The notes under the pieces are model-generated. The model ran no database searches, was not told the origin of the DNA, and saw only the letters and a program-made list of their open reading frames with translations. A stretch of 64,000 bases of DNA from Candidatus Nomurabacteria bacterium (lineage in GTDB: Bacteria > Patescibacteriota > WWE3 > UBA101185 > UBA10185), in NCBI GenBank assembly GCA_020631855.1, contig JACKGU010000001.1, positions 39,601 to 103,600 of the forward strand, given 5' to 3'. Positions 1,943-57,721 of the stretch are shown in pieces. Numbering within the stretch: the first letter of the stretch is position 1; every line of letters begins with the position of its first letter. The translations under genes were made by a program, and so were the position numbers.

Positions 1943-2794
1943 CTACAAGTTTAAACACCCCTTCAGATATTGAAAGCCGCCTATTATCCCGGCATCGTCT
2001 AAAAGCTCTGCTTGTTTGATGTCGGGCATTGAAAAAGGTTGCATTTCGGCTAAATATTCTTGAAGAGGTTTGTGAAAGTGCTTGAACATTTTAGAAACCC
2101 CGCCCCCAAGTATTATTGCTTCAGGTGCCCAAAAACACAGAATGTTGTAGAGGCCTATGCTTAGATGACGGGCATAGCTACTCCAGATTTTTGGGTCGGC
2201 GCATTTTTCTGGAGAAATGCCAAAGCTTTGTTTAAAGGCCGTGCCCGAAGCATAGGCCGCAAAGCAGCCTTTTTCGGTACAGTAAATCAGGGAATTTCCG
2301 TTTGGGTTTATGATATGCTGGCCGGGCTCGAAATACAGTTGAGAATTGTCTATTTTTTTGTGTGCAATTCTTGCTCCTCCAACGCTAGTGCTTAGTGTTA
2401 TGTAGGCAATTGTTTCGTAGGCTTTGCCTGCTCCCGCGTAGGCTTCGCCTAAACCTGCTAATGCAGCATCATTCATGGCGAATATTTTTTTCTGGTCAGC
2501 AACAAACCTTTCGTCTATAAGGTCGTCGAAATGCCTTCCCGACAGCGGGGGGAAATTCATGATTTTGCCGAATTTTCTTTTTTTAAGATCCAGCGTTCCG
2601 GGTACACCAATTGCAACACCTTCAACCTTTTTGTTTATAGATTTTACGAATTGCTCGATCGTGTCGTTTATCTGATATTTTTGACGTAAAAAATTATCCT
2701 CTGTTTTGAACTTGTGCACCTCTTTTATATCAGTTAGGTTTAAGGAGGTTGCTATTCTAGTATTTGTGCCGCCAAGATCGATAGAAATATACAT
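1943..2794 (-). CDS. ROK-family glucokinase / sugar kinase
   Basis: N-terminal ISIDLGGTNTRIA phosphate-1 motif and the ROK architecture. Confidence 0.75.
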   Translation of the reverse strand: MYISIDLGGTNTRIATSLNLTDIKEVHKFKTEDNFLRQKYQINDTIEQFVKSINKKVEGVAIGVPGTLDLKKRKFGKIMNFPPLSGRHFDDLIDERFVADQKKIFAMNDAALAGLGEAYAGAGKAYETIAYITLSTSVGGARIAHKKIDNSQLYFEPGQHIINPNGNSLIYCTEKGCFAAYASGTAFKQSFGISPEKCADPKIWSSYARHLSIGLYNILCFWAPEAIILGGGVSKMFKHFHKPLQEYLAEMQPFSMPDIKQAELLDDAGIIGGFQYLKGCLNL

Positions 2795-2800
2795 ATATAA

Positions 2801-3724
2801 TTATTCTAACTTATTATTTTCTTGAAAAACAGGGTGCTGGCCAAACTCTCCACGCATGGCTGAAATTAATTTACCTTGATAGCTAGGATTAGATTGGCTC
2901 TTTTCTCTTACTTTAATTGCTTCCTGCAAAGCCGGGGTCGATAGACCCATGTCTTTGGCTGTTTCGGCTGTCCATTTACCTTCTCCTGAATGTGAGGCGG
3001 AGCCGGTTATTGCGTCGAGATTTTCGCCGTATTTTCTGAAAGCCTCGTCCAGCCAATCCATAAGCCTAGATGAAATTACCGAGCCGTTTTTATAAGCCAA
3101 CATTACCTCACGCAGTTGTAAGGTATAAGGTGCGTGTTTAAGTACATCAAAGCCTTCAGCTATGGCCTGCATCATGCCATACTCAATGCCGTTATGTACC
3201 ATTTTAACAAAATGCCCAGCTCCGGAGTTTCCTAAATATACGTACCCATCTCTTACACTTAGGTCTTTGAATAGCCTTTCGAGTTTTTTTACAACCTTTG
3301 CGTCGCCACCAACCATAATTGAGGTTCCGTTTCTAGCTCCGGAGGGGCCGCCGCTTACCCCTGCGTCAATATAAGCAATGCCGCGTTCTTTTAGATTCTC
3401 GTATCTTTTTACAGTGTTTTTATAAAAAGAATTACCGCCATCTATCACAACATCTTTTTTAGAAAGAAGGGGTGCCAGCTCGTTCAGGACCTCGTCTACG
3501 GCAGTATAGGGAACCATTAACCAAATGGTTCTAGGGGGCTTAAGTCTGCCTACCATTTCGGTAATCGAAAGCGAGGGCAGGGCCCCGGCCTCGGTGGCTT
3601 TTAGAGTTTTATCCGAGGTTTTATTGTAGACTACAACTTCGTATTTTTTCTCAAGTAGTCTAAGCACCATGTTATAGCCCATTCTACCCAGACCTATATA
3701 TCCTATACGTGTCTTTCTAAACAT
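2801..3724 (-). CDS. gnd: 6-phosphogluconate dehydrogenase (decarboxylating), short roughly 300-aa form
   Basis: IGYIGLGRMGYNMVLRL Rossmann motif and a GVSGGPSGARNG 6PGDH-like signature; sits beside tal. Confidence 0.7.
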   Translation of the reverse strand: MFRKTRIGYIGLGRMGYNMVLRLLEKKYEVVVYNKTSDKTLKATEAGALPSLSITEMVGRLKPPRTIWLMVPYTAVDEVLNELAPLLSKKDVVIDGGNSFYKNTVKRYENLKERGIAYIDAGVSGGPSGARNGTSIMVGGDAKVVKKLERLFKDLSVRDGYVYLGNSGAGHFVKMVHNGIEYGMMQAIAEGFDVLKHAPYTLQLREVMLAYKNGSVISSRLMDWLDEAFRKYGENLDAITGSASHSGEGKWTAETAKDMGLSTPALQEAIKVREKSQSNPSYQGKLISAMRGEFGQHPVFQENNKLE

Positions 3725-3725
3725 G

Positions 3726-4385
3726 TTATACGGGCAGTGAGAGCCCAGATCCTTTCCAATCCGTTAAAAATTTATCGAGGCCTTTTTTTGTTAAAGGGTG
3801 CGCACTTAGTCCTATAAGTATGTTGTATGGAACGGTGCATATATCGGCCCCTATAAGGGCTGCGGTTTCTATATCTTCTGCCTGCCGTATGCTTGCTGCT
3901 AATATTTTTGTTTTTATGTTGTAGTTAGAGTAAGCCTGTTTAATTTTCTTCAGTAGCTCAAAACCGGAGTTTCTTTCTATTTCATTTAATCGTCCGAGAA
4001 AAGGAGAAACGAATAAGACCCCGGCGTTTGCCGCCAGAAGAGCTTGATTTAAGGTAAAACAGAGGGTCATGTTTACGGCTATATTGTGAGAGCTTAGCTT
4101 TTTTGCTGCCATAAAACCTTCTGATACGCAAGGAATTTTTACTACTACGTGCTTGTTAAGTCTTGAGAGTGCTGTTCCTTCAGCAACCATGCCTTCATAG
4201 GTAGTTGCTACTGTCTCTATGCTTACTGGTCCGTGTATTAGTCTAAGTATTTTTTCAATATCTTTAGGGTAGTCTTGCGATGATTTAGCCGCAAGAGAAG
4301 GGTTTGTTGTAACTCCGGAAATTAGCCCTAATCTATAAGCATTTTCTATTTCTATAGGGTCGGCAGAATCAATAAATAGTTGCAT
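3726..4385 (-). CDS. tal: transaldolase (short / FSA-type)
   Basis: GVTTNPSL motif, 219 aa, TIM-barrel transaldolase family. Confidence 0.8.
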   Translation of the reverse strand: MQLFIDSADPIEIENAYRLGLISGVTTNPSLAAKSSQDYPKDIEKILRLIHGPVSIETVATTYEGMVAEGTALSRLNKHVVVKIPCVSEGFMAAKKLSSHNIAVNMTLCFTLNQALLAANAGVLFVSPFLGRLNEIERNSGFELLKKIKQAYSNYNIKTKILAASIRQAEDIETAALIGADICTVPYNILIGLSAHPLTKKGLDKFLTDWKGSGLSLPV

Positions 4386-5254: not shown

Positions 5255-5563
5255 ATGAATTTAGACAAAAAAGGTAACGCATTGATAATATTATTAGCTG
5301 CGGTAGCAGTACTTGCAGTAGCTGTTTTGGGCTTTGTTATAATGAAACGCACCGATGTTGACGATGGGTCCTCAATGGTTGTAGTCGAAGATAAAGCTGA
5401 TGTCATGGTAGAGGATACTAAACCACTAGCCCCTCTTCCGCAGGAAGAAGAAGGAACTCCTGAGGGGGTTAAAAACGAAGATCTTGAAGGTCTAGATTCT
5501 TTAATGAAAGAGATTGACGCGGATCAAAATGCTGACGACGCGCTACAAGACCTTAAGCTTTAA
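5255..5563 (+). CDS. small membrane-anchored acidic protein (102 aa)
   Basis: One N-terminal TM helix and an acidic tail; 3-nt gap from the upstream ORF. Confidence 0.35.
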   Translation: MNLDKKGNALIILLAAVAVLAVAVLGFVIMKRTDVDDGSSMVVVEDKADVMVEDTKPLAPLPQEEEGTPEGVKNEDLEGLDSLMKEIDADQNADDALQDLKL

Positions 5564-5594
5564 TTGACTTGAGGATTTTTATTTGGTAAAAGTA

Positions 5595-5628
5595 GAGGCG
5601 AAGGCCGAGGCCTTCGCCTCTTTCGGTT
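5595..5628 (+). terminator. intrinsic terminator after the 5255..5563 gene
   Basis: Hairpin GAGGCGAAGGC-cgag-GCCTTCGCCTC followed by TTTCGGTT. Confidence 0.6.
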
Positions 5629-5895
5629 CCCTTAGTATAGTGCGAGCTGAAAGTTAGAAACAACATAAAAAGCGTTATAAGTTTGGATTAATGTCACCAA
5701 ACAAGCTGTGGAAAGAAATCATTTAGTAGTAGGCACTGGCCTTTGCAAGACGAAAATAGAATCCGCCGGGCACGCCCGTTATAGCTGTAGCAAGTATTAT
5801 AAGGCTGGTACCTTCCTTTATGGAGCCTCTGGAGAAATCCGGAGGTTTTTTTGTTTGTGAAAGGCAGGTAAGTATATAATTAGAAAACACGAAAT
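5629..5895 (+). promoter_or_regulatory. putative T-box riboswitch leader (probably Val-specific) upstream of valS
   Basis: T-box-like AAGGCUGGUACC (5801-5812): helix A1 AGG(5802-04)/CCU(5826-28), a 7-nt bulge UGGUACC whose UGGU is complementary to a tRNA 3' ACCA with discriminator A as in tRNA-Val, and helix A2 UUCC/GGAG. The A1 helix shares CCUCU (5826-5830) with the terminator hairpin CCTCTGGA-GAAA-TCCGGAGG (5826-5845), which is followed by T7 (5846-5852) 44 nt before the valS start. A hairpin TTTGG-attaatGTCA-CCAAA near 5693-5712 displays GUC+A. Confidence 0.5.
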
Positions 5896-8175
5896 ATGGA
5901 AAAAAAATATAATCACAAAGATGTAGAAGCAAAAATTTATCGGATGTGGGAGGAAAAAGAACTTTTTAAGGCAAAAGTTGATCCTAAAAAGAAACCTTAC
6001 TGCATAATTTTACCTCCGCCCAACGCAAGTGGAGAAATGCATACCGGTAACGTTCTGATGATAGCGATAGAGGATTTGCTAATTCGTTGGAAAAGGCTTA
6101 TGGGCTACGAAGTGCTTTGGTTGCCGGGAACCGATCACGCAGGATTTGAGACTCAAACTACTTACGAGCGTAAGTTGGCAAAACAGGGCAAATCCAGGCT
6201 GGATTTTGACAGGCAGACTCTCTACAACAATATTTGGGACTTTGTACACGAAAACAAATCTCTTATTGAGAATCAAATCAGGCAAATGGGGGCGAGTGTT
6301 GACTGGAGTCGATATACCTTTACTTTAGATCCGTTCTCGTTAAAGTTGGTTTGTGACACTTTTGAAAAGATGCACGCTGATGGCCTCATATATCGGGGAG
6401 ACTATGTTGTTAACTACTCTTTTAAGTGGGGGACTACTTTTTCGGACGCGGAAACCAGTTATAAAGAAGTGTCCGACCCACTGTACTATATAAGATATAG
6501 GCTATCTGATAATTCGCCTTCTCCAAAAGGTGAGCAGGAAATCGTGATTGCTACTGTAAGACCCGAAACAATCTTTATTGACACCCATATAGCCGTTAAT
6601 CCCAAGGATGAAAATCACAGCCATTTAATCGGCTGTAAGGCTTTAAACCCTATAACCGGACATGAAATGGAAATTATTGAGGGTTCTTTTGTTGATCCCG
6701 CTTTTGGTACGGGTATTGTTAAGCTTACTCCCGCACACGATAAAGATGATTTTCAGGTCGCGCTGGCTCAAGATCTGCCAATTATTAATATCATCGATCT
6801 TCAGGGATTAATAACCCAGGGGCCGCAAAAAGGAATGACTATTAAAAAGGCACGAAAGTCGGCCGTAGAGCAGCTTAAAGACTTAGAAAGAATCGAAAAA
6901 ATCGACGAGTCGTATAAACATATGGTTCCTGTAGATTATCGAAGTGGAGATTATATAGAGAATCTGGTTTTACCCAACTGGTTTGTAAAGGTTGATGGGC
7001 TGCGAAATGCAGCTTTAGAGTCGATTAAAAATGGTGAAATGAAGATTTATCCAAAATGGCGCCAGCTCACTTATGTGCGCTGGTTAGAAAATATGCACGA
7101 TTGGGCAATATCCAGGCAGGTTGTGTGGGGCATAAGAGTGCCTGTATGGTACGACAGTTCCAAAAACCCCAATATTTCAGTAACTTTTTTGGATTCAGGC
7201 GGGCAGGCTGTGTCGGGGACTTTGAGTGAAATTCTAGGGTCATACACTTTGAAGGAAGTATTGTCGGGTTTACAAACCCTAAGGGCCCCAAAGAACTCTG
7301 AGTATGTAATTTCCCAAGAGAGTCCGGGTGAGAACTATGTTCCGGAAACCGATACGTTTGATACCTGGTTTAGTAGTGGTCAGTGGCCGTTAATAACCTT
7401 AAAATACCCTGATTCCGAGGATTTCAAATATTTTTACCCCACAAGTGTCCTTGAGACAGGCTGGGAAATTGTGACGCGCTGGATTTCTAGAATGGTAATG
7501 TTTGGTATATATTTAACCGGCAAACCGCCTTTTGCTGATGTGTATTTACATGGACATGTTCGTGCTATAGATGGTAGAAAAATGAGCAAAAGCTTAGGCA
7601 ACCATATAATACCAAGCGACTACATTGAACAATACGGAGCGGATGCTTTGAGAATGGGTTTAATTTTAGGTACCGCTATGGGGCGTGATTTTAATTTTCC
7701 TCAAGATAAAATACTAGCCTTTAGAAACTTTGCAAATAAAATTTGGAATATGGCAAGATTCATGGGAGTGCTCGAGGACAACTATAATCAGGAAGAAGGT
7801 AAAGAACTAACCATTTACTCAATAGACGAACTTAAATCGCTTTTACAGCCTAAAGACATAGAGATACTTGTTGGGTTCGATGCTATGTTGAAGTATGTAG
7901 ACTCCAGTCTCAAGAAGTATAGATTTGCGGATGCGGCCAACTCTATTTATCAGTTTATGTGGAAAGATCTCGCTTCGGACTATTTGGAAGACGCTAAAGG
8001 AAGGCTTGACAAAGATGTGGCGTTAAGTGTTTTGCGAAGCGTTTATTTAGAGTGCCTGAAAGTCTTACACCCTTTTATGCCTTTTGTAACAGAAGAAATC
8101 TGGCAAAATCTTACTGCTGAGAAAGAGAGGCCTTTAGCCGTTCAGTCTTGGCCAAAACCTTATAAAATGTCCTAA
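5896..8175 (+). CDS. valS: valine--tRNA ligase (short form without the C-terminal coiled coil)
   Basis: LPPPNASGEMHTGN (ValRS PPPN-type HIGH region, here HTGN), GTDHAGFETQ and KMSKS (RKMSKSLGN). Confidence 0.85.
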   Translation: MEKKYNHKDVEAKIYRMWEEKELFKAKVDPKKKPYCIILPPPNASGEMHTGNVLMIAIEDLLIRWKRLMGYEVLWLPGTDHAGFETQTTYERKLAKQGKSRLDFDRQTLYNNIWDFVHENKSLIENQIRQMGASVDWSRYTFTLDPFSLKLVCDTFEKMHADGLIYRGDYVVNYSFKWGTTFSDAETSYKEVSDPLYYIRYRLSDNSPSPKGEQEIVIATVRPETIFIDTHIAVNPKDENHSHLIGCKALNPITGHEMEIIEGSFVDPAFGTGIVKLTPAHDKDDFQVALAQDLPIINIIDLQGLITQGPQKGMTIKKARKSAVEQLKDLERIEKIDESYKHMVPVDYRSGDYIENLVLPNWFVKVDGLRNAALESIKNGEMKIYPKWRQLTYVRWLENMHDWAISRQVVWGIRVPVWYDSSKNPNISVTFLDSGGQAVSGTLSEILGSYTLKEVLSGLQTLRAPKNSEYVISQESPGENYVPETDTFDTWFSSGQWPLITLKYPDSEDFKYFYPTSVLETGWEIVTRWISRMVMFGIYLTGKPPFADVYLHGHVRAIDGRKMSKSLGNHIIPSDYIEQYGADALRMGLILGTAMGRDFNFPQDKILAFRNFANKIWNMARFMGVLEDNYNQEEGKELTIYSIDELKSLLQPKDIEILVGFDAMLKYVDSSLKKYRFADAANSIYQFMWKDLASDYLEDAKGRLDKDVALSVLRSVYLECLKVLHPFMPFVTEEIWQNLTAEKERPLAVQSWPKPYKMS

Positions 8176-9051: not shown

Positions 9052-9717
9052 GTGAAAGTTGTCAAAGGAAATAAAATAGAAGAATTTACCGTCGAACAAT
9101 CCCTGACTTACATAGAAGGTTTTTCGCGTGTGCATTTGGATATTGGAGCCGGGGATGGAAGGTATGTTTATAAAGAGGCTATGTTATCGGTAGCCGAAGA
9201 AAAAAAGAGCAACACTTTGTTTATTGCTCTTGAGCCTGTTTCAAAACAGCTTGAGGAGTATTCGAAAAAATCCAAAAAAGCCAAGCTAAGCAACTGCCTT
9301 TTTGTTGTAGGTTCTTTAGATAACATTCCGGTAGAACTCGAACACAGGATTAACTCAATATCTATACTATTCCCGTGGGGAAGCCTTCTTCAAAATGTGG
9401 TTTTTCCAGAGGAATTGTTGATTCCTGTTATTTCAAATGTTGCCCGAAATGGTCGATTGTTCCTTACGATTGTTTTTGGGTATGCCCCTGAGGCCGAACC
9501 TTCAGAAATGCGTCGTTTAGGCCTTGAAGATATCAGTTTAAACTCTTTATACGAAAAAATTATTCCGAGATATATTAAAAACGGTTTTAAGGTTGAATGT
9601 GTAAGGCAGAACTCTAGAGAAGATCTAAAGAAATACGAGTCTACATGGAGTAAAAGACTGGCTTTTGGCCAAAGTCGTCCTGTTTTTACACTTGATCTTT
9701 TGTTACAATTACCATAA
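9052..9717 (+). CDS. class I SAM-dependent methyltransferase, possibly a Kam/NpmA-family 16S rRNA (A1408-N1) methyltransferase
   Basis: HLDIGAGDGRY motif I; ISILFPWGSLL and WSKRLAFGQSRPVF resemble what I recall of the Kam/NpmA family (about 220 aa); GTG start; stop overlaps the next gene (ATAATG). Confidence 0.45.
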   Translation: MKVVKGNKIEEFTVEQSLTYIEGFSRVHLDIGAGDGRYVYKEAMLSVAEEKKSNTLFIALEPVSKQLEEYSKKSKKAKLSNCLFVVGSLDNIPVELEHRINSISILFPWGSLLQNVVFPEELLIPVISNVARNGRLFLTIVFGYAPEAEPSEMRRLGLEDISLNSLYEKIIPRYIKNGFKVECVRQNSREDLKKYESTWSKRLAFGQSRPVFTLDLLLQLP

Positions 9718-16576: not shown

Positions 16577-16650
16577 AGCGGGGTGGAGGAATAGTACCTC
16601 GTCAGGCTCATAATCTGAAGGTCCCGGTGCAAATCCGGGCCCCGCCACCA
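16577..16650 (+). tRNA. tRNA with CAT anticodon, initiator-like (tRNA-fMet candidate), CCA encoded
   Basis: Manual fold: acceptor AGCGGGG/CCCCGCC with an unpaired A1.C72, D stem GAGG/CCTC with A11:T24 (an initiator hallmark), anticodon loop CTCATAA, T stem CCCGG/CCGGG with loop TGCAAAT; 74 nt. Confidence 0.55.
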
Positions 16651-16828
16651 AAGTACACTCTTAGACCTTTTATGCCCGACGGCTCTATAGTCCCACAGTC
16701 CGACTTTTAAAAATATTCCTGATTTGCTATACTCATTGACGTTGCCCACGCTCATGCTTAATTTGTTTGCACGGGACTTTATTTAAGGCCTTACCGCAGC
16801 ATAGAGGTGAGCACGGTAAAATAGTTTC

Positions 16829-16905
16829 GCCAACGTAGCTCAGTCGGTTAGAGCGGGCGTTTCATACGCGCCAGGTCGCTGGTTCGATTCCAGCCGTTGG
16901 CACCA
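16829..16905 (+). tRNA. elongator tRNA-Met (CAT), or tRNA-Ile2 (lysidine) if the C34 is modified
   Basis: Manual fold: acceptor GCCAACG/CGTTGGC with G1:C72, D stem GCTC/GAGC (C11:G24), anticodon loop TTCATAC, T loop TTCGATT, CCA; 77 nt. Confidence 0.75.
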
Positions 16906-16973
16906 ACTTTTTATGTCGCGAGCATTTTTCGTTCTTTCCCATTCCATTTCTGTGTTGGCCGTAAGAAAGATTT

Positions 16974-18023
16974 TTGCTGTATAATAACCTTATGTCAGGA
17001 GTTTTTGATACGAAGAAGCACAAGAAAAGAATTTTAACCGGAGATACGCCGACCGGGAGGCTTCATCTCGGGCATTATATAGGCACTTTAGAGAACCGAG
17101 TTAAATTACAGCACGAATATGAGACTTTTATCATTTTGGCTGATACTCATGCGTTTGCATACCCAAAATATATAGACGATCCTGTTTATATCGCTAAAGC
17201 TACGATCGACATCACTATTGCTAACCTTGCTGTTGGTTTAAATCCCGAAAGCACAACCTTTTTTGTTGAATCGGGGATACCCGAGATATACGAGCTCGCA
17301 ACTTTTTTCTCGATGCTAGTGAGCCATAACAGGGCCTTGCGTAACCCGACAATAAAGGACGAAATCAAGATGAAAAGTCTTGGCGACAGTTATTCTCTTG
17401 GCTTTATTTTTTTCCCACTGCTTCAGGTGGCAGACATAATAGGTGTAAAAGCCGATTTGGTTCCCGTGGGCATTGACCAGAAACCCCACGTAGAGCAGGC
17501 GCTCGAAGTTGTTAGCAGATTTAACTCGATGTATGGAGAAGTTTTCCCGGTGCCCAAGGCATTAATCGGTAGGGTCGGCAAGCTTGTTGGTACTGATGGT
17601 AATCCTAAGATGGGAAAATCTCTTAATAATTGTGTATTTTTAAACGATTCCGAAGAAGATTTGAAGAGTAAAATAATGAACATGTTCACTGACCCTGCAC
17701 GCATTCATGCAAGCGATCCGGGAAGGGTAGAAGGAAATCCAGTTTTTATTTACCACGATGCTTTTAACCCCAATAAAGACGAAATTCTAGATCTTAAAGA
17801 TAGATATGTAAAAGGTCAGGTTGGTGACGTTGAGGTGAAAACTAAACTTTTTAATGCACTTAACACTTTTTTGGGGCCAATTCGCGACAGGTATAAATAT
17901 TACGATGAGCGGAGAGAAGATGTTAAGGATATATTGATTCAAGGAACTGCACGAACCAGAGAGGTAGTTAGAGAGACTTTAGAAGAGACTAAAGATAAAA
18001 TGCATCTGCTAAATTCGCTGTGA
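16974..18023 (+). CDS. trpS: tryptophan--tRNA ligase
   Basis: TGDTPTGRLHLGHYIG (HIGH region, TrpRS type), VPVGIDQKPHVE, KMGKS (KMSKS-like). Confidence 0.8.
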   Translation: MLYNNLMSGVFDTKKHKKRILTGDTPTGRLHLGHYIGTLENRVKLQHEYETFIILADTHAFAYPKYIDDPVYIAKATIDITIANLAVGLNPESTTFFVESGIPEIYELATFFSMLVSHNRALRNPTIKDEIKMKSLGDSYSLGFIFFPLLQVADIIGVKADLVPVGIDQKPHVEQALEVVSRFNSMYGEVFPVPKALIGRVGKLVGTDGNPKMGKSLNNCVFLNDSEEDLKSKIMNMFTDPARIHASDPGRVEGNPVFIYHDAFNPNKDEILDLKDRYVKGQVGDVEVKTKLFNALNTFLGPIRDRYKYYDERREDVKDILIQGTARTREVVRETLEETKDKMHLLNSL

Positions 18024-48305: not shown

Positions 48306-48615
48306 TCTATTATAGTAAGAAAATATTCGGAAATACCAACTTGCATTGTATATTATAAGTAGATTTTATTTTAAAAGTAATTTACCACAATAGTTGCTAA
48401 TATTGATAAAAAGAGGGGCACTATTTGATTTCTATAATAAAAGATTGATGCCGTCTAGGATAGGCCAGTATTACTTGGGAGTAATAAATTTACTCACAAT
48501 GAATAGTTTTAGACATTTGGGCCTATAGATAAGAGGGATATTTAACTTTTTTTCCTCGGTGCCGTTCGTATCATTTTTGCTTTTACTTGTTATAAAGTTT
48601 ATAATTCAAGGCAAC

Positions 48616-49947
48616 ATGTTAAGTCTATCCAAAATTTACTCTAGCAACCCCGATCTAAGAAAAGCTCAAGTCAAAGGACTTCTTTTTTTATTAAACTCCG
48701 AAGACTCTATTTCTAATAATGAGCTGGTTCAACGAACCGGTCTTTCCAAAGAAGTTTTAAAAACATTTAAAGAATCAATTTCTTCAATATTAATAAAAAC
48801 AACTGCTGATGAGCTAGCATTGACGAAAGTCGGCAGGGAGGCTGTTGGGGAGATGAATCCGGAACCCTATTCTTGGACCTACTTAAGCTTTAGCTTTGAT
48901 GCTCTAATGTTGCAGGCGCTTGAAGCTATAAAAGCTATACGGGAAGGGCAGCAGCAATTTGTGGCAAAGAGAGAGTTTGACCAGTTTTTTTGTACTCCTG
49001 AAACTTCGATACTTAAGGCAAAAGCGATTCTAAATAAAGTCGGTGGGTCTGAAGGTGTTAGCATTGCTTTGATGGGGGATGATGATTTGGTTTCAATATC
49101 ATTGGGATTGTTGGACCGGGCTGTAGAAGAAATAATCGTTTTTGATGTAGATAAAGATGTTCTGTCTCTAATAAAGGAAAAGGCTGAGGAATTAAAAATT
49201 ACCTCCATAAAAACCGTTTTATACGACGCAAGAGATGATCTTCCAAAAGACATGGTCGCACGATTTGACGCAGTGCTGACTGATCCGCCGTATACAAGAC
49301 CAGGAGTAGCCGTGTTCCTAGATAAGTGCATTACATTATGCAAAAAAGCTACTACATATGCGGGGCCATATATATTTTTTTGTTATGGTAACGGCCTGCG
49401 CGACCCTTTAAAAGGGCTTAAAGTTCAAGATATTATTCTTAGCAGAAACTTGTTGATAGAGGAAAAAATATCAACATTTAACAGATATGACGGGGCGGAA
49501 ATAATTGGAAGCTCCAGCGATTTGTTTGTATTGAAGGTTTTAGAAACAACGGAAGTTCTGGAGGATTACACCGGTACAGAGATTTACACTTATGAGAATA
49601 CCGAGATAGAGGATTTCCCATACGTAGATCATTATGTTTTTAAGTTATATAAGGTTCCTTCGCACGTTGTTACCTCTAAAAAAACATTGCAGAAGAATAT
49701 AGGCGTTTTTTGTAAATGGCATGGCTTAAACGTTGTTGACACTAAACTAACGAGATTTAAGGGAGGGGGATTCAGCTTCACGTACATACTTTCAACTTCA
49801 AATCTTCTTGTCCATACGTGGCCTGAAAAAAGGGCCCTCCATATAGATCTCATAACCTGCTCTCCCATTAAGAAGAAGCACCTGCTCTTAAAGAATTTAT
49901 CTGATCTGTTTAGTACTATGTCCGTAGAAATCAGAAAAATTGAATAG
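48616..49947 (+). CDS. fusion of a BpsA/DUF43-like aminopropyltransferase-fold domain with an AdoMet decarboxylase (SpeH-like) domain
   Basis: LMGDDDLVSISLG and LTDPPYT (DUF43/BpsA-like); C-terminal FKGGGFSFTYILSTSNLLVHTWPE...IDLITCS matches the pyruvoyl AdoMetDC core; the start is moved to the ATG at 48616 because the upstream 19 codons are hydrophobic and unsupported. Confidence 0.45.
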   Translation: MLSLSKIYSSNPDLRKAQVKGLLFLLNSEDSISNNELVQRTGLSKEVLKTFKESISSILIKTTADELALTKVGREAVGEMNPEPYSWTYLSFSFDALMLQALEAIKAIREGQQQFVAKREFDQFFCTPETSILKAKAILNKVGGSEGVSIALMGDDDLVSISLGLLDRAVEEIIVFDVDKDVLSLIKEKAEELKITSIKTVLYDARDDLPKDMVARFDAVLTDPPYTRPGVAVFLDKCITLCKKATTYAGPYIFFCYGNGLRDPLKGLKVQDIILSRNLLIEEKISTFNRYDGAEIIGSSSDLFVLKVLETTEVLEDYTGTEIYTYENTEIEDFPYVDHYVFKLYKVPSHVVTSKKTLQKNIGVFCKWHGLNVVDTKLTRFKGGGFSFTYILSTSNLLVHTWPEKRALHIDLITCSPIKKKHLLLKNLSDLFSTMSVEIRKIE

Positions 49948-50202
49948 AGGTGTCTCAAGGAGCTCGAAAACAACCAGCATTACTATAGCTTTATTCACAG
50001 TAAAAAATACTCAAAAAAACAGCGCGAACTATTTGACTTTATAATGGTTAGTTGGTATGTTTGGTTCTGCACATATTGCTTTAGGGTAATTATGTGGTGG
50101 TTTAAGTAGACTCATGTTAGCATAAGCCACACAAATCCAACCCGCACTTTAAAAAACAAATAGTTAAAGTTCGATGAATTTAAGGTGAAAAGAATGATTT
50201 CT

Positions 50203-51678
<1,476 letters not shown>

Positions 51679-51983
51679 TAAAGGAAACAAAACGTGACGA
51701 TAGAAAGCGTAAACTTGTCAAAGATACATGAATTTGTGTTTGCGAAAGTCCGCTGTAATATCGCACCTTCTACATCTGATTAGTTCTAGGATGTAGACAG
51801 TAAAAGTTTGCACGTACCTCGCAGCAAACGAGAACAGGTTTGAAGATGAGCCTAAATCTTCGAGTGAATCATTCTTTTTACCTTATAGATATCGAACTTT
51901 AAAGACCATACTACTTTTATTTACAGAGATAGCGGTGCGAACCTTTTTGTAAAAGCATCGAAAGAAGCGATTTAAAGGAACAT

Positions 51984-52107
51984 GCTTTTATAATCTCGTT
52001 ACTTAAAACTACTTGTGTAATCTGGTAAATGTAATTTACCCAACATTTTGGGATTTGCAGTGCAAAGAAATTAAAGTAAACCACCTGCGTAAGCTGGCGG
52101 TGGTTGA
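51984..52107 (+). repeat. dispersed intergenic repeat, copy E (inside the 16S-23S spacer)
   Basis: Aligns to copy A. Confidence 0.85.
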
Positions 52108-52271
52108 TAATTAACAAAGTTTTTTTATGGTGTATACTTGAAGCATGCAAGGTGGTTTTAGAGAAGGTGGTCGGAACCTAATAACAGACAAAGCTGTTGA
52201 AGAAGCTAGTGTTATTGTCGGTTCTCTAGAGATGAAATTAAGCAATCTTCACGTAAAGGCTGAAGTTGAAG

Positions 52272-52733
52272 ATGGGGGGGGATATTAATGCCCATGCAGC
52301 CGTTCTCGACCAACTTGGCCAATCGGCGGTAGCGGAAAATCCAACAGCCTTGGAAGAAGCTGCAGAAGGTGAGGCAGCAGGTCTTGTAGGTCAAGCGCTT
52401 GATGGTATCGGTGTACATGAAATTATTGTTAATCTCGAAGAAATAGCCGTCCCAACAACCCCTGACACGTATATGTCAGATGCTGTTAGAGAGCAAAGAA
52501 TGAATGCGGCGGCGGGCCTAGTCGTTTCTGCTCTGACTGAACAAGGCTGGCTTGTACACCCTAATAACCCCTTGGGCGTGTCTCAGTCCGGTCTTCGAGC
52601 AAATGAAGCTTTATCAGCTGAGCTGGGTCTTCGGCCAAGGGCTCCGGATGCGGCTCCTGATTCCCTAAAAAGATTTGTGGTCTTTTTCAAGGTAAGCCTA
52701 ATTTATGCGGAGCCAGATGCTCCTAGTGCTTGA
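52272..52733 (+). CDS. GC-rich ORF of uncertain coding status (Ala/Gly/Glu-rich, 153 aa) inside the rRNA spacer
   Basis: ORF track; GC content around 55-57% against a genome near 38-40%; no homology recognised; a G8 run at 52274-52281. Confidence 0.2.
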   Translation: MGGDINAHAAVLDQLGQSAVAENPTALEEAAEGEAAGLVGQALDGIGVHEIIVNLEEIAVPTTPDTYMSDAVREQRMNAAAGLVVSALTEQGWLVHPNNPLGVSQSGLRANEALSAELGLRPRAPDAAPDSLKRFVVFFKVSLIYAEPDAPSA

Positions 52734-52814
52734 TTATCTTAATTGAATACCACAAAGTCTTTCTTGTTTACTTATGGCTGCATACTTTGTAATGTTTTTC
52801 GTAGGCAAAGCTAT

Positions 52815-53705
52815 TTAGTTTTTTGTTTTGAAAAAATACTCCCTCATTTTTATTGTTTTTCTAAGACCTTCGTCAAGAGTTGTTAGTGGTGACCATCCTA
52901 GATTTTTTGAAGCTTTTTCATACCTAACGCTCAGAAAGCATTCCTGTTTCGGTCTATCATTTGAAGTTGGCTTTTGCTTTTGAAGCCGCTGTCCGGGTTT
53001 TTTATTGTCGATTTTCATTAGCTTCGATATAGTTTCTTGTAACTGCCCGTTGTTTAATTGCAGGCCTGCCCCGATGTTAAAAATTCCTTCGCAGTCTTTT
53101 TCTATAGCTTTTACGTATGCGTCAATGTGATCATCGATAAAAATAAAATCTCTCACATCTAGAGGCTGTTTAATTTTAGGATCATTTTTATTTAGTAATG
53201 AGTCGATGATGTATTCTATTAGGTAAAATCCGGCCCCTTCTCGTCCATAGGTATTGGCAGTTCTCATTATAACCATTTTGACGTCAGGCATCGCTTGTGC
53301 AAAATATTCAATTACTCTTTCTGCGTTTTGTTTGCTTAGCCCATATGGTGATGATGCTGGTCCTAGCTCTAGTGTTTCTGAAAAAGGTTCATTTGAGTTC
53401 TGATAGCCGTATACCTCCATCGAGCCCGCAAAAACGAGCTTTGCTGTATTTATGTCTTGAGAGCCCTTTAGGTTTTTTATTGCTGATAGGAGTTTGAATG
53501 TTCCTATCTCATTAGTTTGTAAGTATTCCTCAGGAAAATTGAACGAAAGCCCTCCTGACGATAGCGCTGCTAAATGAACTATAACTTCTGGATTCGCTTC
53601 TTTTATGGCGTTTTCCATGGATCTTTGATTATTGAGATCTGCGACAAAAAGCTTTGCCTGGGCCGGGACTTTAAGGAGGTCAATATTGCTATTGATCCTA
53701 TGCAT
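52815..53705 (-). CDS. NAD-dependent epimerase/dehydratase (extended SDR) with an interrupted N-terminus
   Basis: YxxxK-type SDR core. In frame and directly upstream (53706-53798) lies KKIFITGITGFIGKRLAQRLIEQGYEVSG, the Rossmann motif, but with no start codon. An ATG at 53795-53797 is out of frame by one, next to an A7 homopolymer. Confidence 0.65.
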   Translation of the reverse strand: MHRINSNIDLLKVPAQAKLFVADLNNQRSMENAIKEANPEVIVHLAALSSGGLSFNFPEEYLQTNEIGTFKLLSAIKNLKGSQDINTAKLVFAGSMEVYGYQNSNEPFSETLELGPASSPYGLSKQNAERVIEYFAQAMPDVKMVIMRTANTYGREGAGFYLIEYIIDSLLNKNDPKIKQPLDVRDFIFIDDHIDAYVKAIEKDCEGIFNIGAGLQLNNGQLQETISKLMKIDNKKPGQRLQKQKPTSNDRPKQECFLSVRYEKASKNLGWSPLTTLDEGLRKTIKMREYFFKTKN

Positions 53706-53818
53706 GCCGCTTACTTCATACCCTTGTTCTATTAATCTTTGTGCTAATCTTTTACCTATGAAGCCGGTAATGCCGGTTATAAAAATCTTTTTTTCATATT
53801 TTGCTGATGTTTAACGGA

Positions 53819-53895
53819 TGGTGGGTCTGGATGGACTCGAACCATCGACCTTTCCCTTATCAGAGGAACGCTCTAACCGCCTGAGCTACAGACCC
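53819..53895 (-). tRNA. tRNA-Ile (GAT), CCA encoded, on the strand opposite the rRNA genes
   Basis: Reverse complement GGGTCTGTAGCTCAGGCGGTTAGAGCGTTCCTCTGATAAGGGAAAGGTCGATGGTTCGAGTCCATCCAGACCCACCA; anticodon loop CTGATAA. Confidence 0.85.
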
Positions 53896-53978
53896 CCAAA
53901 CCTTTCATGATTTGAAAGTATTGGCCTATCATAGCAAGGTTTAAAATATTTTTCAAACTTGAGGTTTTTAATTTTTTT

Positions 53979-54034
53979 CCTTTGCAACGTAAAGAAATTA
54001 CAGCAAACCGCCTGCGTAGGCTGGTGGCGGTTCA
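53979..54034 (+). repeat. dispersed intergenic repeat, copy F (3' half only)
   Basis: Aligns to the 3' two hairpins of copy A; the CCGCC/GGCGG stem shows compensatory change relative to CCACC/GGTGG in other copies. Confidence 0.75.
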
Positions 54035-54241
54035 TAGTTGACACGCCTCAGCCAACGTGTTAACTTACTCTCACCAAATACTCCAACTTCTACCTTAGGG
54101 TTTAAAGTTTGGTAGGTTACAGTTTTTGTAATCTCCGACGGAAGCTCTGATTCCAAATAATATTAATAGTTTATGTGTATGGATCTGAAACGGGTTCATA
54201 TGATAATATGTTTTTGCTTTCGCACAAACGTGTTTGCGTAT

Positions 54242-54317
54242 GGGCCTGTAGCTTAGTTGGCAGAGCGCTACATTTGCAATGTAGAGGTCACGGGTTCGAC
54301 TCCCGTCAGGTCCACCA
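54242..54317 (+). tRNA. tRNA-Ala (TGC), CCA encoded
   Basis: GGGCCTGTAGCTTAGTTGGCAGAGCGCTACATTTGCAATGTAGAGGTCACGGGTTCGACTCCCGTCAGGTCCACCA; G3:U70 identity pair present. Confidence 0.9.
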
Positions 54318-54484
54318 AACTATATAGATAATCTTTATCTAGGTACTTTGAAAACTGAACGAAAAACAATGTTAGTTCAACATGAGAATCAAGTACTTTG
54401 TTGTCGCAAGACAGCAGGGTAGTTTAATTCTTGAAGTTCCGTGTTTACACGGAACACAACGTCTTAGTATTAGAAATATAAAAA

Positions 54485-57505
<3,021 letters not shown>

Positions 57506-57605
57506 TATATTTCTTATAAGATGTTGCGTTGTCTACATTTGTTTTTTGTTCAGTTTTTAGAGTACCTACTGTTAGGTAGGTATTCTAAATTTAGTTTGTG
57601 GTCAG

Positions 57606-57721
<116 letters not shown>

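Follow-up and report, generated by a model that had tools for sequence, protein, structure and literature searches.

Architecture of the valS leader

The sequence analyzed here is a stretch of 64,000 nucleotides (nt) from Candidatus Nomurabacteria bacterium (contig JACKGU010000001.1, positions 39,601 to 103,600 of the forward strand), called the window in what follows. Its main subject is the region in front of valS, the gene for a valine-tRNA ligase (ValRS), where a candidate T-box riboswitch is located between a hairpin at about 5594-5621 and the ATG of valS at 5896. The putative T-box would span positions 5668-5852, running from Stem I through the U7 tract of an intrinsic terminator (Table 1). 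An earlier note had proposed an element of this kind, and this reading is supported by comparison: many Patescibacteria conserve such a leader 5' of valS, and its Stem I, Stem II, and A2 helix show compensatory changes. Moreover, the same ValRS protein and the same 332-nt upstream region are found in four independent assemblies (e.g., GCA_020631805.1, contig JACKGT010000005.1) and, being identical in all of them, the leader is not an assembly artefact.

In the 5' part of the leader, a Stem I with a valine specifier and a K-turn was expected, and a GUC-A candidate had been pointed out near 5703-5706. The specifier is indeed carried by a Stem I, but its actual position is 5693-5696, in the terminal loop of an ultrashort stem and not in an internal loop, and the canonical GA/GA K-turn is missing. 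Stem II follows directly, its AAGAAA/UAGAA loop occupying the place normally held by GAA/AGUA (S-turn). Next comes the Stem IIA/B element, and a comparison of its IIA/F-box segment (CCGGGCACGCCCGUUA) with that of L079 (CCGGGUACGCCCGUUA), a valS leader of the type described by the Rfam family RF00230 (related loci carry L numbers), shows 15 of 16 positions to be identical. In the linker, AAG (5792-5794) fits the RAG purines that normally stand just 5' of Stem III, a motif described in PMC11297988. Stem II, IIA, and the upper Stem I helix are also present in the minimum free energy (MFE) fold of the nascent leader of the window, computed on this single sequence.

At the 3' end of the leader, the parts listed in the earlier note, namely AGG (within AAGG, 5801-5804), the UGGUACC bulge, and the UUCC/GGAG helix, are all in the sequence. 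The base of A2 in the window is a U.G pair (5813/5825), with the U on the opposite strand relative to the canonical G.U. The 3' strand of A1 had also been described as common to the antiterminator and an intrinsic terminator, which is borne out: CCUCUG (5826-5831) is the 5' strand of the terminator as well, and the terminator scan reports this site. Because of this shared strand, formation of the terminator excludes the antiterminator. The computed energies are -17.2 kcal/mol for the terminator and only -3.1 kcal/mol for the antiterminator; therefore, OFF would be the default state and a stabilizing ligand would be required. The terminator lies upstream of the start codon as had been claimed, but the spacer to the ATG is 43 nt and not 44. 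With a hairpin followed by U7 and no Shine-Dalgarno pairing, the window copy is predicted to be purely transcriptional.

An alternative register of the antiterminator, in which position 5805 is paired with 5825 and A2 is shifted by one, was rejected, since it breaks A2 in L006 and in other leaders, and the compensatory changes favor the register used here. Also, the T-box sequence at 5801-5815 forms an extended palindrome (AAGGY-UGGU-ACCUU), nearly invariant in all members of the variant. RNAalifold favors a local hairpin with a UGGU loop over this segment instead of the antiterminator, and covariation is uninformative on this hairpin because the sequence is nearly invariant. The palindrome hairpin may represent a third, tRNA-free conformer.

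Table 1. Positions of the leader elements and of the features around them (window coordinates, unless another locus is named; bp, base pairs; ORF, open reading frame).
Feature	Position	Strand	Details
Upstream ORF	5255-5563		
Possible -10 box (TATAGT) of a leader promoter	5636-5641	+	Weak assignment, read from the sequence
Ultrashort Stem I	5671-5707	+	Lower helix AGC/GCU, 5671-5673/5705-5707 (3 bp); upper helix GUUUGG/CCAAAC, 5681-5686/5697-5702 (6 bp)
Stem I asymmetric internal loop	5674-5680/5703-5704		At the K-turn position
Stem I apical loop	5687-5696		AUUAAUGUCA, 10 nt, carries GUC
Specifier codon and purine	5693-5696	+	GUC (Val; 5693-5695) followed by A, inside the apical loop
Stem II	5708-5766	+	Base helix GUGGA/UCCGC, 5708-5712/5762-5766 (5 bp); distal hairpin 5719-5756, variable
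Stem II purine-rich internal loop	5713-5718 and 5757-5761		AAGAAA and UAGAA, conserved; at the S-turn position
Stem IIA/B element	5767-5787	+	IIA hairpin CGGG-CACG-CCCG, 5767-5778; exact F-box CCGUUA, 5776-5781
Candidate IIB pseudoknot	5774-5775 with 5784-5785		GC with GC, 2 bp
Linker AAGUA	5792-5796	+	AGUA invariant and preceding base always a purine in the core alignment
Antiterminator (discriminator), predicted	5798-5831	+	A1 5' strand UAUAAGG, 5798-5804; A1 3' strand CCUCUG, 5826-5831
T-box bulge UGGUACC	5806-5812		Between A1 and A2; extra C5805 on the 5' side gives an 8-nt bulge
A2 helix UUCC/GGAG	5813-5816/5822-5825		Loop UUUAU
Intrinsic terminator	5826-5852	+	CCUCUGGA-GAAA-UCCGGAGG plus U7; hairpin 5826-5845, U7 5846-5852; from terminator scan and energy
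valS, valine-tRNA ligase	5896-8175	+	Gene proposed to be regulated; 759 amino acids; NCBIfam NF004349 (777 bits; cut-off 704), with further matches to Pfam tRNA-synt_1 and Anticodon_1
HIGH signature HTGN of ValRS	6013-6051		PPPNASGEMHTGN, ValRS residues 40-52
aspS leader of the same minimal family (locus L097)	4077-4204	-	aspS gene at 2673-3962 (-)

Conservation and specificity among related leaders

For the comparison, 80 valS loci were taken from species-representative genomes. The leaders 5' of valS in L001, L002, L006, L013, L017, L018, L026, L030, and L033 share the motif GAAGGYUGGUACCUUY ... GGARCCUCUC with a hairpin and a U-run behind it, and a more canonical context (AAGGUGGUACC) stands 5' of valS in L004, L035, and L038. 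A metagenome scan with a composite pattern adds L081, L085, L091, L097, and L098, nine unrelated coding matches among its 20 loci being discarded. The architecture is common to 15 distinct related leaders from Microgenomates/WWE3-type genomes, and two to three further valS leaders keep this layout in a more divergent form, which is that of L004 and L038; the valS leader of L035 is grouped with those that share the architecture.

A covariance model built from 12 related leaders with the window left out (R2) scores positions 5668-5831 at 63.9 bits (E ~1e-15), this being its sole match on both strands of the 64 kb. Moreover, a model named R1 recovers members outside its seed, namely L097 (55 bits), L026 (54 bits), and L035 (24 bits). 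Unlike TGGTACC by itself, for which two matches are found versus four expected, the composite element is significant. The z-score of the MFE of the whole leader is weak (-1.57).

Base pairing was evaluated in a core alignment of 13 leaders, which were parsed by hand and mapped back to the real sequences, with the variable inserts excised; unless another alignment is named, the counts given below refer to it. In this alignment, pairing holds in 97.1% of the cells, with compensatory changes at 16 of 29 pairs. None of 500 shuffles reached such a value, and sliding the partners by one to three columns leaves 31-46% paired. When the native sequences are aligned by the covariance model, 97.2% are paired and 23 of 28 pairs show compensatory changes, although these figures lean towards the structure because the alignment was fitted to it and contains some split matches. 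A MAFFT alignment of the native leaders was discarded in favor of the core and model-based alignments, because the different loop lengths (8-11 nt) placed the 5' strand of Stem I in the wrong register. De novo folding by RNAalifold also yields Stem I, Stem II, and IIA.

Stem I and the base of Stem II are the best supported parts, with compensatory changes in 11 of their 14 pairs (seven of nine in Stem I and four of five in the Stem II base helix) and all of them paired in every leader. A2 is also 100% paired, with compensatory changes in two of its four pairs, and the inner three pairs of A1 are invariant. The distal part of Stem II varies from 4 to 47 nt across relatives. For the IIB pseudoknot, the GC/GC pairs of the window are AU/AU in L017, which, being a single double-compensatory event, is only a hint in its favor; a third IIB pair (columns 59-72) was considered and dropped, as the sequences give it no support. 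The S-turn of Stem II and the IIB pseudoknot are only partly supported. At the place of the terminator, a hairpin with a U-run is present in 10 of the 13 core leaders, and also in L026 and L097.

A T-box is defined by two contacts that track the identity of the regulated gene. In the leaders compared here, GUC is invariant in all 13 core members and is also present in the valS leaders L004, L035, and L038. Except for L026, the valS leaders present GUC followed by a purine (C in L013) together with the bulge UGGU. On the other hand, the leader of L097, which precedes a non-discriminating aspS (NF003483, 487 bits), carries GAC-A in the loop and UGGC in the bulge. Also, two proS leaders (L002 and L035) carry CCC-A or CCU-A in apical loops of 7 nt, with UGGU in the bulge. 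This joint change of loop codon and UGGN base with the downstream synthetase (Val, Asp, Pro) would be the signature of a T-box. In bacteria, tRNA-Val and tRNA-Pro have A73 and tRNA-Asp has G73; the N of UGGN in these leaders, being U for valS, U for proS, and C for aspS, is consistent with these bases. The codons of the family that end in C agree with the known preference of T-boxes for C-ending codons, for which a structural explanation has been given (PMC7583486).

Some of these leaders deserve a description of their own. The proS leaders of L002 (609-820, minus strand) and L035 (2307-2539, minus strand) have the loops AUCCCAU and CAUCCUA, K-turns, and the canonical sequence AAGGUGGUACCACG, with RF00230 scores of 34-35 bits. 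L026 (2768-2909), a Woesebacteria valS leader, keeps the scaffold and the terminator intact, its Stem I loop reading UUAUUCC and its Stem II being a plain hairpin; this leader may have changed in specificity or may be decaying.

The output also differs between members. L017 lacks a U-run, and its CCUCUC strand complements GAGAGG, the Shine-Dalgarno sequence located 6 nt before the AUG, an arrangement that corresponds to the translational mode already known for T-boxes; in L033 and L085, the 3' strand of the terminator is itself the Shine-Dalgarno sequence. Thus, the outputs of the family would span transcriptional, dual, and translational control. L017 (2754-2995) and L004 (2780-3004), both without a U-run and with the 3' strand of A1 (CCUCUC and UUCAGUU, respectively) complementary to the Shine-Dalgarno or start region before the AUG, look like translational versions.

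Proposed mechanism, alternatives, and known T-boxes

Based on this evidence, it is highly probable that the region 5668-5852 is a T-box riboswitch controlling valS by transcription attenuation. The anatomy and its conservation are observed, whereas every step of the mechanism proposed here is inferred. The nascent leader would fold a short Stem I with GUC exposed in the apical loop; Stem II, with its purine-rich loop, and the IIA/B pseudoknot would pack against this stem, and the anticodon of tRNA-Val(GAC) would pair with GUC. If this tRNA-Val is uncharged, its 3'-ACCA would pair with the UGGU of the bulge (5806-5809) and stabilize the weak A1/A2 antiterminator, allowing RNA polymerase to read through into valS. 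When tRNA-Val is charged or absent, the far more stable terminator (5826-5852) would form, and transcription would stop 43 nt before the start codon. The element would belong to a minimal T-box family of Microgenomates/WWE3 without a distal platform in Stem I, usually without Stem III, and with an 8-nt bulge.

Several points weigh against this interpretation. The search with RF00230 that the earlier note had suggested gave no match in the window at the gathering score (93 bits), and looser cut-offs did not change this result (E<=10 for 5540-5960, E<=1 for all 64 kb), whereas the two valS leaders from Chloroflexi-type genomes that served as positive controls, L061 and L079, obtained 103-115 bits. 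This miss is attributed to the model itself, given that even related leaders whose T-box sequence is canonical reach no more than 18-39 bits with it; in the Rfam alignments of related leaders, about 75 model positions of Stem I are skipped. The failure is explained by the ultrashort Stem I, the absence of Stem III, the AA/AA loop, the 8-nt bulge, and the flipped base pair of A2, and the same departures set the element apart as a variant, beyond an ordinary member of the T-boxes.

These departures also count on functional grounds. Stem I has no distal part in the window, its 10-nt apical loop following directly on 6 bp, and hence there is no elbow-binding platform. There is no Stem III hairpin either, the segment from IIB to the bulge being 17 unpaired nt (5788-5804), whereas L017 keeps a hairpin at this position. 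The internal loop of Stem I is AA/AA in the window (5679-5680/5703-5704) in comparison with GA/GA in L018, L033, L085, and L035, the outer part of A1 contains a U-C mismatch, and the base pair of A2 is U.G or U-A and not the G.U of the steric sensor. According to the literature, a long Stem I with an elbow-binding platform is as a rule required in transcriptional T-boxes, short stems with an apical specifier being those of translational T-boxes; Stem III is indispensable, and an antiterminator without it does not bind tRNA appreciably; and the aminoacyl group is sensed sterically mainly through a G.U pair at the A2 base (PMC7583486). Reviews attribute to the elbow platform, Stem III, and the K-turn the fast capture of tRNA, the binding of its 3' end, and the docking of Stem I and Stem II, respectively.

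Other unfavorable points come from the genomes and from the procedure. In L026, the loop position expected to hold a Val codon does not contain one, and the element is found at only about one-quarter of the related Patescibacteria valS loci. A tRNA-Val gene, expected to carry the anticodon GAC and A73, was looked for without success in the window, 60 related loci, and the 10-kb extensions of the same contig on either side. A perfect TATAAT at 5875-5880, between the terminator and the ATG of valS, with a poor -35 (TTGTTT, 18-nt spacer), could act as a basal promoter, giving terminator-independent expression of valS that bypasses the riboswitch. Finally, the core alignment is dependent on a manual structural parse.

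Part of these observations would also fit a T-box relative that no longer senses tRNA, being either a decaying relic or a constitutive attenuator set by the speed of the polymerase or by a protein. Such an origin would explain the degenerate K-turn, the outer A1 mismatch, and the missing Stem III of the window, the loss of both the Val codon and the Stem II internal loop in L026, and the lack of such a leader at about three-quarters of the related Patescibacteria valS loci. Nonetheless, very divergent genomes, with ValRS proteins only 45-61% identical, show either invariance or covariation of the codon, the F-box, UGGUACC, the inner A1 pairs, and A2. Moreover, the essential valS sits behind a terminator of -17 kcal/mol; therefore, some antitermination would be needed unless TATAAT at 5875-5880 is a working promoter, and we regard the loss of tRNA sensing as unlikely. 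The lack of an RF00230 match could instead point to an RNA with another ligand, for example, a small-molecule riboswitch with only the terminator in common, or an autoregulatory operator bound by ValRS (a tRNA mimic like that of E. coli thrS), the hairpin loop being a conceivable binding site for a protein. In that case, a mimic of tRNA-Val would be expected to show an anticodon (GAC or UAC) and not the codon GUC, no other Rfam family matches the leader, and the fact that the loop triplet and the UGGN base follow the synthetase (Val, Asp, Pro) is explained only by tRNA recognition. A different ligand is thus very improbable.

The last alternative is a chance resemblance, TGGTACC occurring by accident in an ordinary intrinsic terminator or at the 3' end of a short ORF (5708-5860) or of a small RNA (sRNA) of another kind. 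This heptamer is indeed no commoner than expected by chance, the fold z-score is weak, and an ORF of 50 amino acids overlaps the region. However, the E value obtained with the window left out of the model and the conservation with compensatory changes speak against it. The ORF itself was rejected as a leader peptide: the inserts between the conserved blocks, of 4-47 nt and up to about 90 nt, are not multiples of three, and hence no reading frame is kept. We give almost no credence to a resemblance by chance.

For the T-box interpretation, a comparison with canonical RF00230 members (tyrS of B. subtilis, L061, and L079) shows in the window the same parts in the same order: a Stem I codon with a 3' purine, Stem II, IIA/B with the F-box CCGUUA, the bulge UGGNACC flanked by A1 and A2, and a terminator having the 3' strands of A1/A2 in common with them; L079 also has GUC for valS and a nearly identical IIA/F-box. 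However, the window lacks the AG bulge, the distal loop, the tRNA-elbow platform, and Stem III, and presents its codon in the apical loop. Its T-box sequence is of the type AAGGYUGGUACCUUC, with an extra pyrimidine, instead of AGGGUGGNACCGCG, the flanks of the bulge differ from the canonical AGGG...GCG, the base of A2 is U.G or U-A and not G.U, and there is no RF00230 score to set beside those of L061 and L079.

Closer in shape are the Actinobacterial ileS T-boxes (M. tuberculosis, N. farcinica), which also have a short Stem I with an apical-loop specifier, no elbow platform, and a reliance on Stem II and the IIA/B pseudoknot (PMC7583486). Nonetheless, those are translational, acting by sequestration of the Shine-Dalgarno sequence, and keep Stem III and a K-turn described as essential (PMC7583486), whereas the window element ends in an intrinsic terminator, is devoid of Stem III, reads AA/AA in its internal loop, precedes valS (aspS or proS in relatives), and belongs to another phylum. 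Within its family, L017 resembles the translational output of the ileS sequestrator. On the other hand, the glyQS T-boxes, which are natural minimal forms without Stem II, also combine a reduced scaffold with transcription antitermination (PMC7583486); in this case, the long Stem I platform and Stem III are kept and the Stem II domain is dropped, the opposite of the window family. Finally, the proS and valS T-boxes of Patescibacteria that remain below the RF00230 threshold (L002 609-820, L035 2307-2539, L004 2780-2971, and L038 2850-2974; 27-39 bits versus the gathering score of 93) share with the window the host group, the ultrashort Stem I, the codon in an apical loop (7-9 nt in them), and the IIA/F-box. 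In these, the bulge context is still the canonical one of 7 nt (AAGGUGGUACCACG) and a hairpin resembling Stem III is present, whereas the window subfamily has the extra pyrimidine and UUCC in A2.

Whether Microgenomates/WWE3 have a hitherto undescribed class of minimal T-boxes of their own, terminating transcription without the elbow platform, Stem III and sometimes, as in the window, the canonical K-turn, is for us an evenly balanced question. The 8-nt bulge, the flipped A2 base pair, and the palindromic AAGGY-UGGU-ACCUU may compensate for the missing parts. The T-box proposed here would extend this regulation to the candidate phyla radiation (CPR), with its tiny genomes and few known regulators, and would be a natural minimal T-box, seemingly co-transcriptional without an elbow platform or Stem III. 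It would therefore bear on the minimal RNA able to read tRNA identity and charging, on the speed of tRNA capture needed for a one-shot transcriptional decision, and on T-box function without a K-turn, a question raised in a 2020 review (PMC7583486). Standard annotation would be blind to T-boxes of this type, including Rfam and the Rfam-based TBDB, which uses the Rfam model and a class II model, the latter applied to Actinobacteria and to Rfam matches with a truncated Stem I. The covariance model could be used to annotate the minimal family across metagenomes. In an incomplete coverage of the literature, no publication tying T-boxes to Patescibacteria, CPR, Saccharibacteria, or Microgenomates was found, and an earlier description is possible.

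The valS gene and other features of the window

Among species-representative genomes, the closest relatives of the window ValRS are found in WWE3, Woesebacteria, Levybacteria, and other Microgenomates-type metagenome-assembled genomes (at most 61% identity), the next ones being Chloroflexi enzymes (37-41% identity). The HIGH motif of this ValRS had been reported as an unusual HTGN. The motif is present, reading PPPNASGEMHTGN, but it is not a peculiarity of this gene: HTGN is a trait of the clade, seen in 22 related Patescibacteria ValRS, in comparison with HMGH or HLGH in the Chloroflexi relatives. The protein is short, its alignment to the valS model covering only positions 1-697 out of 860; therefore, its C-terminal part is missing.

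Upstream of the leader, the possible -10 box has a counterpart in relatives, where TATAAT stands 10-25 nt 5' of the conserved AAAAGCG start; the promoter scan reported no site at 5636-5641. The hairpin at 5594-5621 (AGAGGCGAAGGC-CGAG-GCCUUCGCCUCU) is strong, with 12 bp and a poor U-tract, gives weak matches to unrelated sRNA models, and, being directly after the ORF at 5255-5563, is probably the terminator of this ORF.

The earlier note had also suggested looking at other synthetase leaders, and no further T-box was found in this genome region. At 16577-18023, two tRNA-Met genes are followed after about 70 nt by trpS (at 16974; TIGR00233, 269 bits), which has no T-box or other leader element, so that not all synthetase genes of this genome are under T-box control.

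The ribosomal RNA operon of the window (50200-57717) is interrupted, the 16S (50200-51677) and 23S (54478-57510) genes being 2.8 kb apart. The gap contains ORFs at 52266-52733 (+) and 52815-53705 (-), a tRNA-Ile(GAU) on the opposite strand (53819-53895), and a tRNA-Ala(UGC), and the 23S gene carries insertions relative to the model, for example, one of about 95 nt near 54774. Just 5' of the 16S gene (48559-49947) lies a fusion of branched-chain polyamine synthase (BpsA_C) and S-adenosylmethionine decarboxylase domains. A precomputed gene table assigns the ORF at 9052-9717 to Pfam PF24675 (NpmA), a family of 16S rRNA methyltransferases associated with resistance to aminoglycosides. Finally, on the same NCBI contig, about 3 kb past the left edge of the window, a transfer-messenger RNA gene (L105, 13575-13978; tag AEDNSIAYAGVGAYAPAMALV) adjoins smpB.

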